Origin: Escherichia coli | GTDB lineage: Bacteria > Pseudomonadota > Gammaproteobacteria > Enterobacterales > Enterobacteriaceae | Strand: one strand, 5' to 3' | Assembly (NCBI RefSeq): GCF_024223415.1 | Contig: NZ_CP100500.1 | Length of the DNA: 64,000 nt | In this document: positions 1,072 to 16,349 of the stretch, in pieces | Layout: each line of letters opens with the position of its first letter | Position numbering within the stretch: position 1 is the first letter of the stretch | Position numbers and translations under genes: made by a program | The notes under the pieces: generated by a model | Database searches by the model: none | The model's input: the letters and a program-made list of their open reading frames with translations, nothing else | Told to the model about the DNA's origin: nothing

Positions 1072-1167
1072 CAATTAAGCTAACCGTCGTTAGAATCGTC
1101 CCCTTTTTTTCAGGATCCGGCATGTAGGCCGGATCAGGAACGACAAAACAATGGCCTGGAGGCTACC

Positions 1168-2136
1168 TTGTTAAATTCATTTAAACTTTCGCTACAGTAC
1201 ATTCTGCCGAAACTATGGCTTACTCGCCTGGCGGGTTGGGGCGCAAGCAAGCGGGCAGGATGGCTGACAAAACTGGTTATCGATCTGTTCGTTAAATACT
1301 ACAAGGTCGACATGAAAGAGGCGCAAAAGCCGGACACCGCCAGCTACCGCACCTTTAACGAATTCTTTGTCCGTCCGCTGCGTGACGAAGTACGCCCAAT
1401 CGATACCGATCCGAATGTCCTGGTTATGCCTGCCGATGGCGTTATCAGCCAGTTGGGTAAAATCGAAGAAGATAAAATCCTGCAAGCCAAAGGCCACAAC
1501 TACAGCCTCGAAGCCCTGCTGGCAGGCAACTATCTGATGGCGGACCTGTTCCGCAACGGTACGTTTGTGACCACTTACCTCTCCCCGCGTGACTACCACC
1601 GCGTACACATGCCGTGCAACGGTATTCTGCGTGAGATGATCTACGTGCCGGGCGATCTCTTCTCCGTTAACCATCTCACGGCTCAGAACGTGCCGAATCT
1701 GTTTGCCCGTAACGAACGCGTGATCTGCCTGTTCGATACCGAATTTGGCCCAATGGCGCAGATTCTGGTCGGTGCGACGATTGTAGGCAGCATTGAGACT
1801 GTCTGGGCGGGCACCATTACGCCGCCGCGCGAAGGCATCATCAAGCGCTGGACCTGGCCTGCCGGGGAAAACGACGGTTCTGTGGCACTGCTGAAAGGCC
1901 AGGAAATGGGTCGTTTTAAACTCGGTTCCACCGTTATCAACCTGTTTGCACCGGGTAAAGTGAATCTGGTTGAGCAACTGGAAAGCCTGTCTGTCACGAA
2001 AATTGGCCAGCCGCTGGCAGTATCTACCGAAACCTTTGTTACGCCAGACGCTGAACCAGCTCCACTTCCTGCTGAAGAGATCGAAGCAGAACACGACGCC
2101 AGCCCATTGGTTGACGATAAAAAAGACCAGGTCTAA
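1168..2136 (+). CDS. psd: Phosphatidylserine decarboxylase proenzyme
   Basis: 322-aa ORF, matches recalled E. coli Psd (322 aa); conserved position after rsgA. Confidence 0.93.
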
Positions 2137-2157: not shown

Positions 2158-5100
2158 GTGCGCCTGATTATCACTTTTCTGATGGCCTGGTGCCTCAGTT
2201 GGGGGGCGTACGCCGCGACGGCCCCCGATAGCAAACAAATCTCACAAGAACTGGAGCAGGCAAAAGCGGCGAAACCCGCACAGCCGGAAGTCGTAGAGGC
2301 GCTCCAGTCTGCCTTAAATGCGCTTGAGGAACGAAAAGGTTCCCTTGAGCGCATCAAGCAATATCAAGAAGTCATTGATAATTATCCGAAACTCTCCGCT
2401 ACTCTGCGCGCACAATTAAACAACATGCGTGACGAGCCGCGCAGCGTGTCGCCGGGGATGTCTACCGACGCGCTGAATCAGGAAATTCTCCAGGTCAGCA
2501 GTCAGTTGCTGGATAAAAGCCGTCAGGCCCAGCAAGAGCAGGAGCGCGCCCGCGAGATTGCCGATTCGCTGAATCAACTGCCGCAACAGCAAACCGACGC
2601 CCGCCGTCAGTTAAACGAGATCGAGCGCCGCCTGGGAACGCTTACCGGCAATACTCCGCTCAATCAGGCACAAAATTTCGCGTTGCAGTCTGACTCCGCA
2701 CGTCTTAAGGCGCTCGTTGATGAACTGGAGCTGGCGCAGCTGTCTGCCAATAACCGCCAGGAATTAGCGCGCTTGCGCTCAGAGCTGGCGGAAAAAGAGA
2801 GCCAGCAACTGGATGCGTATTTGCAGGCCTTGCGTAATCAATTGAACAGCCAACGCCAGCTTGAGGCAGAGCGGGCGCTGGAAAGTACCGAATTACTAGC
2901 AGAAAACAGTGCCGATTTGCCGAAAGATATCGTCGCGCAATTCAAAATTAACCGCGAACTATCGGCGGCTTTGAATCAACAGGCGCAGCGGATGGATCTC
3001 GTTGCCTCGCAACAGCGTCAGGCTGCCAGCCAGACGTTACAGGTCCGGCAGGCGTTGAATACGCTGCGTGAACAGTCGCAATGGCTGGGATCGTCCAATC
3101 TGCTCGGCGAAGCGTTGCGGGCGCAGGTGGCACGGCTGCCGGAAATGCCGAAACCACAACAGCTTGATACCGAAATGGCGCAGTTGCGTGTGCAACGGTT
3201 ACGTTATGAGGATCTGCTTAATAAACAGCCGCTGCTACGGCAAATTCATCAGGCCGACGGTCAGCCGCTGACTGCCGAGCAAAACCGTATTCTGGAAGCA
3301 CAGCTACGCACTCAGCGTGAGTTGCTGAACTCATTGTTGCAGGGTGGCGACACGCTACTGCTGGAACTGACCAAGCTGAAAGTCTCCAACGGGCAACTGG
3401 AAGATGCGCTGAAAGAAGTGAACGAAGCGACGCACCGCTATCTGTTCTGGACCTCTGACGTGCGCCCGATGACCATCGCCTGGCCGCTGGAAATCGCCCA
3501 GGATCTGCGTCGTCTCATTTCGCTGGACACCTTCAGTCAGTTGGGCAAAGCCAGTGTGATGATGCTGACCAGCAAAGAGACGATTTTGCCGCTGTTTGGC
3601 GCGTTGATTCTGGTCGGTTGCAGTATTTACTCGCGCCGCTATTTTACCCGTTTTCTTGAACGTTCGGCGGCGAAAGTCGGTAAAGTGACTCAGGATCACT
3701 TCTGGCTGACGTTACGCACTCTTTTCTGGTCGATTCTCGTCGCGTCACCGCTGCCGGTGCTGTGGATGACGCTGGGTTACGGCTTGCGCGAGGCGTGGCC
3801 TTATCCGCTGGCGGTCGCGATTGGCGATGGTGTAACGGCCACCGTGCCGCTGCTGTGGGTAGTGATGATTTGCGCCACCTTTGCCCGCCCGAACGGCTTG
3901 TTTATCGCTCATTTTGGCTGGCCGCGCGAACGTGTTTCTCGTGGGATGCGCTACTACCTGATGAGCATCGGGCTTATTGTGCCACTGATTATGGCGCTGA
4001 TGATGTTCGATAACCTCGACGACCGCGAATTTTCCGGTTCGCTGGGACGGCTTTGCTTTATCCTCATTTGCGGTGCGCTGGCGGTGGTCACCCTCAGCCT
4101 GAAAAAGGCCGGGATCCCGCTGTATCTCAACAAAGAGGGCAGCGGCGACAACATTACCAACCATATGCTGTGGAACATGATGATTGGCGCGCCACTGGTT
4201 GCCATTCTGGCGTCGGCGGTGGGTTATCTGGCAACGGCGCAGGCACTGTTAGCGAGGCTTGAAACCTCGGTTGCCATCTGGTTCCTGCTACTGGTGGTTT
4301 ATCACGTTATCCGCCGCTGGATGCTGATCCAACGACGCAGGCTGGCGTTTGACCGGGCGAAGCATCGCCGGGCAGAGATGTTAGCGCAACGTGCGCGTGG
4401 CGAAGAGGAAGCACATCATCACAGTAGCCCGGAAGGGGCAATTGAAGTCGATGAAAGCGAAGTCGATCTCGATGCCATCAGTGCGCAGTCCTTGCGGCTG
4501 GTGCGCTCAATTTTGATGTTGATCGCCCTGCTTTCGGTCATTGTGCTGTGGTCAGAAATCCATTCCGCTTTCGGCTTCCTCGAAAATATTTCGCTGTGGG
4601 ATGTCACCTCCACGGTACAGGGCGTAGAAAGTCTGGAGCCGATTACCCTCGGTGCGGTGCTGATTGCCATTCTGGTGTTTATCATCACCACGCAGCTGGT
4701 GCGCAATCTGCCCGCGCTGCTGGAACTGGCGATTTTGCAGCACCTGGATTTAACGCCGGGTACCGGCTACGCCATCACCACCATCACCAAATATCTGCTG
4801 ATGCTGATTGGCGGGCTGGTCGGCTTCTCGATGATTGGTATTGAGTGGTCGAAATTGCAGTGGCTGGTCGCCGCGCTCGGTGTTGGTCTCGGTTTTGGTT
4901 TGCAGGAAATTTTCGCCAACTTTATCTCTGGCCTGATCATCCTGTTCGAAAAACCGATTCGCATTGGCGATACGGTAACGATCCGCGATCTTACTGGTAG
5001 CGTGACAAAAATTAACACCCGCGCCACCACCATCAGCGACTGGGACCGTAAAGAGATAATCGTGCCGAACAAGGCGTTTATTACCGAGCAGTTTATCAAC

Positions 5101-11606: not shown

Positions 11607-13162
<1,556 letters not shown>

Positions 13163-13250
13163 AATTTCATCGGGTCCGAATTTTCGGACCTTTTCTCCGC
13201 TTTTCCTTGCTGTCATCTACACTTAGAAAAAAACCAGTAAGGAAACATTT

Positions 13251-13784
13251 ATGCGCCTGCTCCCTCTCGTTGCCGCAGCGACAGCTGCATTTCTGGTCGT
13301 TGCCTGCAGTTCTCCTACGCCGCCGCGTGGCGTGACCGTAGTGAATAATTTCGACGCTAAACGCTATCTCGGTACCTGGTATGAGATTGCCCGTTTTGAT
13401 CACCGCTTTGAACGTGGACTGGAAAAAGTCACCGCAACATACAGCCTGAGGGATGATGGCGGCCTGAATGTCATTAATAAAGGCTATAACCCTGACAGAG
13501 AAATGTGGCAGCAGAGTGAAGGGAAAGCGTACTTTACCGGCGCACCAACTCGCGCTGCGCTGAAAGTGTCATTCTTTGGTCCTTTCTATGGCGGTTATAA
13601 CGTTATTGCACTCGATCGGGAATACCGCCATGCGCTGGTTTGCGGCCCGGACCGCGACTACCTGTGGATACTCTCCCGCACGCCAACCATTTCTGACGAA
13701 GTGAAACAGGAGATGCTGGCAGTCGCGACCCGGGAAGGGTTTGATGTCAGTAAGTTTATTTGGGTACAGCAGCCCGGTAGTTAG
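13251..13784 (+). CDS. blc: Outer-membrane lipocalin Blc
   Basis: 177 aa, lipobox LVVAC, lipocalin GTWYEIA motif. Confidence 0.93.
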
Positions 13785-14098
13785 TGAGTGCTGAGTTTCA
13801 GACCAATAATCCCCAATACGATTAACGCCAGACTCGCCAGACGCATCGGGTTAGCGGACTCACCGAGCAGCACAATGCCGGTGATGGCCGCGCCGACTGC
13901 GCCAATACCCGTCCACACGGCATAAGCCGTCCCTACTGGTAACGATTTCATCGCCCAGGCAAGTAGCGCCATACTGACAATCATCGCCGTCACGGTAATA
14001 ACACTCGGCGTCAAACGACTAAAGCCGTGGGTATATTTCAGGCCAACGGCCCATACCACTTCCAGCAGACCAGCAATAACTAAGATAATCCAGGACAT
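13781..14098 (-). CDS. gdx: Guanidinium exporter Gdx (SugE), SMR family
   Basis: ORF trimmed to Met ([14 protein letters not shown]...), 105 aa, four-TM SMR protein. Confidence 0.92.
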
Positions 14099-14116
14099 AT
14101 CAGGCTCCGGAGAATT

Positions 14117-14162
14117 GGGGCCGTCCCCGGTGAAAAGAGGCGTTTGCAGGTCGTCCTGCAAA
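14117..14162 (-). promoter_or_regulatory. Guanidine-II riboswitch (mini-ykkC) in gdx leader
   Basis: On the gdx sense strand two short hairpins uugcagg-ACGA-ccugcaa and ccgggg-ACGG-cccc, each with an ACGR tetraloop, just upstream of the gdx start. Confidence 0.8.
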
Positions 14163-14230
14163 GCTGATGGTTGAACGGATATTTTGCCAGGTGGCAGAGG
14201 AATTTCAACTATTACCTTTGTGACTATCGC

Positions 14231-14267
14231 AAAAAAACAAACGGCACGACACAGCTGTCGTACCGTT
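14231..14267 (-). terminator. Rho-independent terminator after ecnB
   Basis: Near-perfect inverted repeat acggcacgaca-cagctg-tcgtaccgt followed (on minus strand) by U-run. Confidence 0.6.
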
Positions 14268-14278
14268 ATTGCTTATTG

Positions 14279-14425
14279 CTATTGCTGCGCTTTCGTTGCT
14301 GCGCCAGAAATCGCGTTACCGCCATCAGAAATGTCTTCACCAACGCCACGCGTAGTGTTGCAGGCAGTTAATACTGTTGAAAGCACCAGAACAGAAAAGA
14401 TCGCTGCAATTGTCTTCTTCACCAT
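14279..14425 (-). CDS. ecnB: Entericidin B lipoprotein
   Basis: 48-aa [51 protein letters not shown], lipobox LTAC; not in ORF track because short. Confidence 0.85.
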
Positions 14426-14535
14426 AACGTCTTCCTTTTAGGTAATGTTATTTATGTTTGCCTATAGCAAATTAATAATAGACAACATCGCCAAAAATGA
14501 TGGAAATCTGATGATTTTTCGGAAGAGAAGAAAAA

Positions 14536-14661
14536 TTAGCTGGCAGCGCGGGAGATGGAGTTGCCGAGATGTTTGATATCTTCGCCGAAACCGCGAGCGG
14601 TGTTACAGCCCGTGAGCAGCGTGCTGGCAAGCAAAACAAGAACGATAAGGCGTTTCATCAT
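14536..14661 (-). CDS. ecnA: Entericidin A lipoprotein
   Basis: 41-aa [44 protein letters not shown], lipobox LTGC. Confidence 0.85.
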
Positions 14662-14712
14662 CTCTGACCTGAATAAGTGATGGTGCAGCCTGCAGGCCGC
14701 ACCACAACCGCA

Positions 14713-15279
14713 TTACTTCACGCGAGAGACGTATTCACCAGAGCGGGTATCCACTTTGATGACTTCGCCGATTTGTACGAACAGCGGAACTTTAACCACA
14801 GCGCCAGTAGACAGGGTAGCCGGTTTGCCGCCAGTACCTGCGGTATCACCTTTCAGGCCCGGATCGGTATCAACGATTTCCAGTTCAACGAAGTTCGGCG
14901 GAGTAACGGAGATCGGCTGACCATTCCACAGAGTTACGATACACTCTGCCTGATCCAGCAGCCATTTCGCGTTGTCGCCAATTGCTTTTGCATCAGCAGA
15001 CAGCTGCTCGAAAGTTTCGTTGTTCATGAAGTGCCAGAACTCACCGTCGTTGTACAGGTAAGTCAGGTTCATATCGACAACATCAGCGCCTTCAGCGGAG
15101 TCAGTAGATTTGAAGGTTTTTTCTACGCGAGTACCGGTCAGCAGACGACGCAGTTTAACGCGAGCAAATGCCTGGCCTTTACCCGGTTTTACGAATTCAC
15201 TCGCTTCAACCGCGTAAGGTTCGCCGTCTAACATGATTTTAAGACCAGCACGAAAATCGTTGCTATAGTACGTTGCCAT
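14713..15279 (-). CDS. efp: Elongation factor P
   Basis: 188 aa, matches recalled E. coli EF-P including KPGKG loop carrying modified Lys34. Confidence 0.97.
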
Positions 15280-15320
15280 AAGGCCCTCTGAAATTTGTTA
15301 ATTGGTAGCTAAGCCACAAA

Positions 15321-16349
15321 ATGGCGCATATTGTAACCCTAAATACCCCATCCAGAGAAGATTGGTTAACGCAACTTGCCGATGTTGTGACCGATCCTGA
15401 TGAACTTCTGCGTCTTTTGAATATAGACGCGGACGAAAAACTGTTGGCCGGACGCAACGCCAAAAAGCTGTTTGCCCTGCGTGTGCCCCGCTCATTTATC
15501 GAGCGCATGGAGAAAGGCAATCCGGACGATCCGCTTTTGCGTCAGGTACTTACCTCGCAAGATGAGTTTGTCGTCGCGCCCGGATTCTCCACCGACCCGC
15601 TGGAAGAACAGCACAGCGTAGTGCCTGGTTTGTTGCATAAATACCACAACCGGGCGCTTTTGCTGGTCAAAGGCGGCTGCGCGGTAAATTGCCGTTATTG
15701 CTTCCGTCGCCACTTCCCTTATGCCGAAAATCAGGGCAACAAGCGTAACTGGCAAACTGCACTTGAGTATGTTGCTGCGCATCCGGAACTGGACGAGATG
15801 ATTTTCTCCGGCGGCGATCCGCTGATGGCGAAAGATCACGAGCTGGACTGGTTGCTCACACAACTGGAAGCCATCCCGCATATCAAACGTCTGCGGATTC
15901 ACAGTCGTCTGCCGATTGTGATCCCGGCACGCATCACAGATGCGCTGGTTGAACGCTTTTCACATTCTACGCTGCAAATCTTGCTGGTGAATCACATCAA
16001 CCATGCCAATGAGATAGATGAAACATTCCGTCAGGCGATGGCTAAGTTGCGCCGGGCGGGCGTTACTTTGCTGAACCAGAGCGTTCTGTTACGTGGTGTG
16101 AACGATAACGCACAAACGCTGGCAAACCTGAGTAATGCGTTGTTCGATGCAGGCGTGATGCCGTATTACCTGCATGTGCTCGATAAAGTACAGGGCGCGG
16201 CGCATTTTATGGTGAGTGATGACGAAGCACGGCAGATTATGCGTGAGTTGCTGACACTGGTGTCGGGATATCTGGTGCCGAAACTGGCGCGAGAAATTGG
16301 CGGCGAACCCAGCAAAACGCCGCTGGATCTCCAGCTACGCCAGCAGTAA
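15321..16349 (+). CDS. epmB: EF-P beta-lysylation protein EpmB (lysine 2,3-aminomutase-like, YjeK)
   Basis: 342 aa, radical-SAM CxxxCxxC (CAVNCRYCFRRH); divergent from efp. Confidence 0.93.
   Translation: MAHIVTLNTPSREDWLTQLADVVTDPDELLRLLNIDADEKLLAGRNAKKLFALRVPRSFIERMEKGNPDDPLLRQVLTSQDEFVVAPGFSTDPLEEQHSVVPGLLHKYHNRALLLVKGGCAVNCRYCFRRHFPYAENQGNKRNWQTALEYVAAHPELDEMIFSGGDPLMAKDHELDWLLTQLEAIPHIKRLRIHSRLPIVIPARITDALVERFSHSTLQILLVNHINHANEIDETFRQAMAKLRRAGVTLLNQSVLLRGVNDNAQTLANLSNALFDAGVMPYYLHVLDKVQGAAHFMVSDDEARQIMRELLTLVSGYLVPKLAREIGGEPSKTPLDLQLRQQ

Follow-up and report, generated by a model that had tools for sequence, protein, structure and literature searches.

Two short genes on the minus strand between efp and gdx/sugE were found in the window (the whole stretch of 64,000 nucleotides of Escherichia coli DNA that was analysed), and they are ecnA and ecnB, the long-known chromosomal entericidin locus of E. 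coli, which has been in the literature since 1998 (Bishop et al., J Mol Biol 280:583, as cited in PMC7296081). Their identity is certain, and the ecnA and ecnB of the window are already known, already annotated, ordinary genes. The function of ecnAB is less firmly settled than the identity. The overall explanation, in which the identity, the lipoprotein processing, the expression and the function of EcnB and EcnA proposed here are taken jointly, has a probability of about 0.9.

Both ORFs, encoding 41 and 48 amino acids, are present in the program-made ORF list and start with ATG (Table 1). The earlier note had described minus-strand genes of 41 and 48 codons between gdx and efp, and its span, strand and lengths are matched exactly. 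Beyond the flanking genes, blc and ampC are located on one side and epmB on the other. The two products are 55% identical to each other (E=4e-14), and both were assigned to the Pfam Entericidin EcnA/B family (PF08085, cut-off 23.3), EcnA with 26.4 bits and EcnB with 30.2 bits, each covering 20 of the 20 profile positions. The NCBIfam equivalogs distinguish between them: NF007319 (EcnA, cut-off 86) gives 114.9 for EcnA and only 46.5 for EcnB, whereas NF007487 (EcnB, cut-off 94) gives 121.9 for EcnB and only 44.5 for EcnA. The product names attached to these models are 'lipoprotein antitoxin entericidin A' and 'lipoprotein toxin entericidin B', respectively. Moreover, EcnA and EcnB of the window are 100% identical to EcnA (b4410, YP_026283.1) and EcnB (b4411, YP_026284.1) of E. 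coli K-12 MG1655. The same note had taken the pair for entericidins and had proposed a homology check against EcnA and EcnB, the absence of homology being what would speak against this reading; homology was found by all three models, by the complete identity to the K-12 proteins and by the same gene order, and the entericidin reading stands.

Of the 5,426 complete E. coli genomes, 5,425 are matched by a 701-nt query covering the locus, and 5,419 contain 80% or more of the region; about 11 of the 5,425 matching genomes are without full coverage of the locus. The locus of the window is 100% identical to that of E. coli strain S51 and several others, and ecnB, ecnA and efp are annotated under the match in all RefSeq records among the matches listed. 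The statement that the pair had been missed by the ORF track is correct in so far as both genes are below the first-stage length cut-off, but the genes are neither unannotated nor new, since RefSeq records annotate both.

Table 1. Features of the entericidin locus and its surroundings (window positions, unless another record is given)
Feature	Position	Strand	Basis and remarks
efp	14713..15279	-	flanks ecnA
Hairpin directly 3' of the efp stop codon	14672..14709	-	-24.4 kcal/mol, z=-2.6; ~15 nt before the ecnA start
ecnA, entericidin A prolipoprotein	14536..14661	-	41 aa; ORF list, PF08085, NF007319, K-12 identity
Antisense ORF over ecnA	14555..14680	+	41 aa; overlaps ecnA
ecnA-ecnB spacer with ecnB promoter and 5'UTR	14426..14535	-	110 nt; sequence and cross-genus comparison
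Sigma-S-like -10 block TCTATTATTAA	14482..14472	-	coordinates inferred from the published description
-10-like element TGCTATAGG, downstream of the -10 block	14469..14461	-	matches the sigma-38 pause signal of ecnB P (PMC5389655); putative mapping
ecnB transcription start	~14467-14469	-	predicted from the published description
ecnB Shine-Dalgarno AAGGAAG	14437..14431	-	canonical; 7 nt upstream of the ATG
ecnB, entericidin B prolipoprotein	14279..14425	-	48 aa; ORF list, PF08085, NF007487, K-12 identity
Antisense ORF over ecnB	14184..14441	+	85 aa; overlaps ecnB
ecnB intrinsic terminator	14240..14267	-	11-12 bp GC-rich hairpin, then TTTGTTTTTTT; terminator scan
Promoter-like site TTGAAA-16-CAAAAT before the riboswitch	14208..14181	-	-35 region conserved in Salmonella
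Guanidine-II (mini-ykkC) riboswitch	14116..14162	-	Rfam RF01068, 50.4 bits vs 32, E=2.4e-8
gdx/sugE	13781..14098	-	flanks the pair on the ecnB side
UPEC129 deletion	L009 (E. coli UPEC129) 3009..3109 = window 14684..14165		513 bp; removes ecnA and ecnB
Salmonella LuxR-type regulator	L010 (Salmonella sp. pPJT1-452kb) 1078..1665	-	453-kb IncHI2A record

Judged from the sequences, the lipoprotein architecture of EcnA and EcnB is certain. The N-termini of both proteins are K/R-rich and are followed by a hydrophobic core and a lipobox matching [LVI][ASTVI][GAS]C. In EcnA, the signal peptide (residues 1-18) and the lipobox LTG-C19 precede a mature lipopeptide of 23 aa with a net charge of +1 plus one His; in EcnB, the signal peptide (residues 1-21) and the lipobox LTA-C22 precede a mature lipopeptide of 27 aa with a net charge of -1. 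The core C-N-T-x-R-G-x-G-E-D-I-x3-G-N-x-I-S is common to both mature peptides. Signal peptide, lipobox Cys and G-x-G-E-D-I core (present as G-F-G-E-D-I and G-V-G-E-D-I) had already been recognised from the letters as the common architecture of the pair, and all three are found in both proteins. Both scores for the Pfam LPAM_1 model are below its cut-off of 20 (16.4 for EcnA and 10.8 for EcnB), so the lipoprotein assignment rests on the lipobox motif and on the conservation of its Cys, which is kept in 7 of the 7 homologs compared.

The mature peptides have a strongly amphipathic periodicity, with helical hydrophobic moments of 0.62 (EcnA) and 0.43 (EcnB), values that were reached by 0 of 5,000 shuffles for EcnA and by 0.02% for EcnB. 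They are, however, rich in Gly (3 of 23 residues in EcnA and 5 of 27 in EcnB), which weakens the case for a stable helix. No solved structure was found for the entericidin family, the best PDB match (E=0.66) being an unrelated sulfite oxidase. The signal peptides would direct EcnA and EcnB to export, after which the lipobox Cys (C19 in EcnA and C22 in EcnB) would be modified with diacylglycerol by Lgt, the signal peptide would be removed by LspA and the new N-terminus would be acylated by Lnt. According to the '+2 rule', the residue following the lipoprotein Cys governs sorting to the outer membrane, and the Asn present at this position in both proteins may lead to their Lol-dependent sorting to the outer membrane. 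For EcnB, the predicted sorting is consistent with its class in Shigella sonnei, where it is an outer membrane lipoprotein and the most abundant lipoprotein of outer membrane blebs (PMC4820968). Acylation of EcnB at C22 is given by UniProt curation, and intact EcnB was unseen by top-down mass spectrometry (PMC12529367).

Expression of ecnB probably takes place from a promoter located in the ecnA-ecnB spacer. The block GATGTTGTCTATTATTAA of this spacer is conserved in Salmonella, and the Klebsiella spacer retains TTGTCTAT and has TCTATGCTTA at the -10 region; both the form of E. coli and Salmonella and that of Klebsiella resemble a sigma-S extended -10. An alignment of eight E. coli alleles (those of the window, of K-12 and six of the more divergent ones, a small sample chosen for divergence) was used to follow variation within the species. 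The ecnB promoter and 5'UTR (14426..14489, minus strand) are invariant in 8 of these 8 alleles, whereas 14 sites vary within the 123 nt of ecnA that precede them, which suggests strong constraint on the regulation of ecnB. In vitro, ecnB P is transcribed by the sigma-38 holoenzyme and is recognised poorly by the sigma-70 holoenzyme, with a pause at +17/+18 at a site that overlaps an OmpR site (PMC5389655). The terminator of ecnB has a folding energy of -21.4 kcal/mol (z=-4.7), which none of 200 shuffled sequences equalled. Its hairpin is conserved in Klebsiella and Salmonella, and 14254 and 14252, where E. coli alleles vary, are loop positions. Taken together, ecnB would be a separate, highly expressed unit with its own sigma-S-dependent promoter, reported to be repressed by OmpR, a canonical Shine-Dalgarno sequence and an intrinsic terminator. 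High sigma-S-driven expression of ecnB is well supported by the literature, as is, more indirectly, the outer membrane location of its product. Few small proteins of E. coli are detected as often as EcnB by mass spectrometry (PMC12529367).

The expression signals of ecnA are of another kind. The hairpin directly following the efp stop codon has no U-run in E. coli, is followed by a T-rich tail in Salmonella and Klebsiella and is kept in Salmonella with changes on both arms; probably, it is a leaky efp terminator. The ribosome-binding site of ecnA is weak, with a Shine-Dalgarno-like AGG/GAG. Given its position directly behind the efp hairpin and its weak ribosome-binding site, ecnA probably has a low expression that depends largely on read-through from efp. 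The terminator scan called no site of terminator type between ecnA and ecnB, so that transcripts of ecnA may also continue into ecnB. The gene opens with a tandem ATG ATG (14656..14661, minus strand), and because the Klebsiella ortholog aligns to the second ATG only, the true start of E. coli ecnA may be M2, giving a protein of 40 aa.

The locus of K-12 has the same gene order, efp-ecnA-ecnB-gdx-blc-ampC, and its spacer, promoter block and terminator depart from those of the window only by single bases; from the window, the K-12 locus is separated by three synonymous coding SNPs and a few intergenic SNPs. At the ecnB stop (14279..14284, minus strand), the window has a 6-bp insertion relative to K-12, an extra GCAATA tandem-repeat unit that leaves the protein unchanged: the gene ends CAG CAA TAG CAA TAA in the window and CAG CAA TAA in K-12, the stop codon being TAG in the former and TAA in the latter. 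The insertion allele matches at 99% or more over a 61-nt probe in 1,434 of the 5,426 complete E. coli genomes. The loci of Salmonella and Klebsiella also have the order efp, ecnA-like gene, ecnB and sugE, with the ecnB terminator hairpin and the guanidine-II leader of sugE conserved. Their EcnB proteins show 92-96% identity, whereas their EcnA orthologs, of 43-44 aa, differ by signal-peptide indels. In Salmonella, a LuxR C-terminal-type regulator, absent from E. coli and Klebsiella, lies between ecnB and sugE and is convergent with ecnB; in Citrobacter, this gene is called ecnR. A tblastn match to the Salmonella-type regulator in E. coli (14175..14309) was syntenic but non-significant (E=0.49) and was rejected as a remnant: DNA alignment of the E. 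coli spacer matched only the sugE-proximal promoter/riboswitch part and the ecnB terminator and gave no ecnR-type remnant.

A natural loss of the locus was found in E. coli UPEC129 (NZ_CP071522.1), where a clean 513-bp deletion removes ecnA, ecnB and the promoter-like site of sugE. The deletion is flanked by 7-bp direct repeats ACCATCA (window 14684..14678 and 14171..14165), and in what remains the efp hairpin is fused to the guanidine-II riboswitch. The loss of both genes indicates that the locus is dispensable.

Selection on the two reading frames was followed in the same eight divergent E. coli alleles, in which 19 of the 20 variable sites within both ORFs are third-position synonymous (binomial P=1.2e-8 for at least 19 of 20 at the third position), the single non-synonymous exception being T14A in the EcnA signal peptide. 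A plus-strand ORF lies over each of the two genes, and it might be supposed that these plus-strand ORFs are the real genes and that the minus-strand frames are incidental. Both are indeed open, and the wobble positions of each fall on those of the gene that it overlaps, so that these ORFs stay open and look 'conserved' within E. coli, and sense and antisense are inseparable by third-position periodicity within this species alone. As a proof of frame, this periodicity was therefore only partly informative, and it was the Salmonella and Klebsiella orthologs that settled the frame. When E. coli ecnB is compared with its Salmonella and Klebsiella orthologs, the variable sites are distributed 5/3/32 by codon position, and EcnB differs at 2-6 of 48 residues with a length of exactly 48 aa throughout. 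In the same comparison, the antisense frame of ecnB has 4-10 amino acid changes versus 2-6 in the sense frame, plus a gained stop codon, and it begins and ends differently from genus to genus (85, 46 and 91 aa); the 85-aa ORF crosses the ecnB terminator and the 6-bp indel. The antisense frame of ecnA has internal stop codons in both Salmonella and Klebsiella, and in the tail of this ORF outside ecnA 3 of 3 variable sites are amino-acid-changing. Neither antisense ORF had a Pfam match. As read from these alignments, the comparisons show purifying selection on the ecnA and ecnB frames and not on the overlapping antisense ORFs; the latter are by-products, not genes, and plus-strand genes are highly improbable. 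It is even less probable that the interval between efp and gdx holds only short ORFs open by chance, or a non-coding RNA locus. The short ORF length alone would fit chance ORFs, but family matches above the curated cut-offs, the above codon-position bias (P=1.2e-8), the protein length and sequence kept across genera and the detection of EcnB by mass spectrometry (PMC12529367) are all against it, and an Rfam search of 13000-16000 gave no RNA element other than the guanidine-II riboswitch downstream of the pair.

With the genes identified as ecnA and ecnB, the alternatives concern their function, and the 'toxin' and 'antitoxin' product names carried by RefSeq and NCBIfam go back to the 1998 over-expression account. 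As summarised in PMC7296081, Bishop et al. (1998) reported that lysis increased when EcnB was over-produced and that this effect was opposed by ecnA in cis; for the lytic and the antidote activity alike, this one over-expression study is the source. In the same account, ecnB expression rises in stationary phase and is controlled by RpoS and EnvZ/OmpR. A true toxin-antitoxin or programmed-death module, in which EcnA keeps a bacteriolytic EcnB in check and cells lyse when EcnA is lost at high osmolarity in stationary phase, could account for these data and for the names. It is also in keeping with the position of the putative antitoxin gene upstream of the toxin gene, with the opposite charges of the two peptides (+1 and -1) and with the secreted EcnB homolog of Enterobacter C6-6, which PMC7296081 cites as bacteriolytic on Flavobacterium (Schubiger 2015). 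Similarly to type II toxin-antitoxin modules, such as MazEF and RelBE, ecnAB is a pair of small neighbouring genes in which the gene of the proposed antidote comes first. Unlike in these modules, the two products are paralogous and both are exported as lipoproteins, ecnB is served by a sigma-S promoter of its own, there is no plasmid enrichment and the antitoxin knockout is viable, an ecnA deletion being part of the Keio collection (PMC7296081). Owing to this promoter, the two genes are not strictly co-expressed, and an inhibitor of LolCDE raised ecnB 6.7-13-fold while ecnA was not induced (PMC5105897). Up to ~70,000 copies of EcnB per cell have been reported, in an account that mentions neither lysis nor EcnA (PMC12529367), and EcnB dominates the lipoproteins of S. 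sonnei outer membrane blebs, where again neither lysis nor EcnA was reported (PMC4820968). The clean loss of both genes in UPEC129 shows dispensability and is by itself no argument against a toxin-antitoxin pair.

The distribution of homologs also bears on the toxin-antitoxin module. The pair is kept in the Enterobacteriaceae examined, but obligate pairing across homologs was not observed. Homologs in other Proteobacteria (Agrobacterium Atu8019, Burkholderia and Paroceanicella) have the signal peptide, the lipobox and a C-N-T-x-x-G-[VI]-G-E-D-[IV] core in ~44-53 aa, and, unlike ecnAB, they are single genes without an adjacent paralog; no second entericidin ORF was found near the Paroceanicella and Burkholderia homologs. 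The lipoprotein Atu8019 is exposed on the surface, is carried on outer membrane vesicles and has a part in vesicle docking, and no lytic activity, lysis or pore formation, was detected for it (PMC7296081). Association with plasmids or mobile elements was not observed either: tblastn found EcnB homologs in just 17 of 72,556 plasmid records, most of them replicons of 0.4-5.4 Mb that carry a plasmid label, and in the E. coli collection 3 of 5,430 matching places are on plasmids. On balance, a true toxin-antitoxin module is unlikely. Most likely, an excess of EcnB perturbs membranes and EcnA is a modulating paralog: EcnB would be an abundant outer membrane lipopeptide of stationary phase and envelope stress that causes bacteriolysis when over-produced, and EcnA would be a paralog able to counteract it, possibly by interacting with EcnB.

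It is also possible to go further and suppose that ecnAB is no toxin-antitoxin pair at all, that EcnB, under sigma-S control and present in very large amounts, is a lipopeptide with a structural or surface role in the outer membrane, that EcnA is its low-abundance, oppositely charged tuning paralog and that the lysis of 1998 was an over-expression artefact; we hold this tentatively, at slightly less than even odds. If true, EcnB might have a role in the properties of the outer membrane or of vesicles, in adhesion or in the response to stalled lipoprotein trafficking. Such a reading concerns the whole gene family and nothing special to the window. The propagated 'toxin' and 'antitoxin' names rest on thin evidence, and the comparative data add modest weight to the existing doubts because of the near absence from plasmids, the single-copy homologs, the separate promoters and the natural double deletion. 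For the window itself the significance is little, since b4410 and b4411 occur in practically all E. coli genomes and standard pipelines annotate them. For sequence scans in general, a length cut-off in the ORF track systematically removes real, highly expressed small lipoprotein genes of this type.

The plasmid collection contains several entries of 4.8-5.4 Mb that are evidently complete chromosomes under a plasmid label, and these inflate the apparent plasmid carriage of chromosomal genes such as ecnB. The efp-ecn-sugE copy of Salmonella pPJT1-452kb lies on a record typed as a conjugative megaplasmid.

The ecnB-gdx spacer is filled by the guanidine-II riboswitch, which has two hairpins with ACGR loops, is located just upstream of gdx/sugE and is preceded by a promoter-like site (Table 1). 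This riboswitch is the known leader of the guanidinium exporter gene gdx/sugE.
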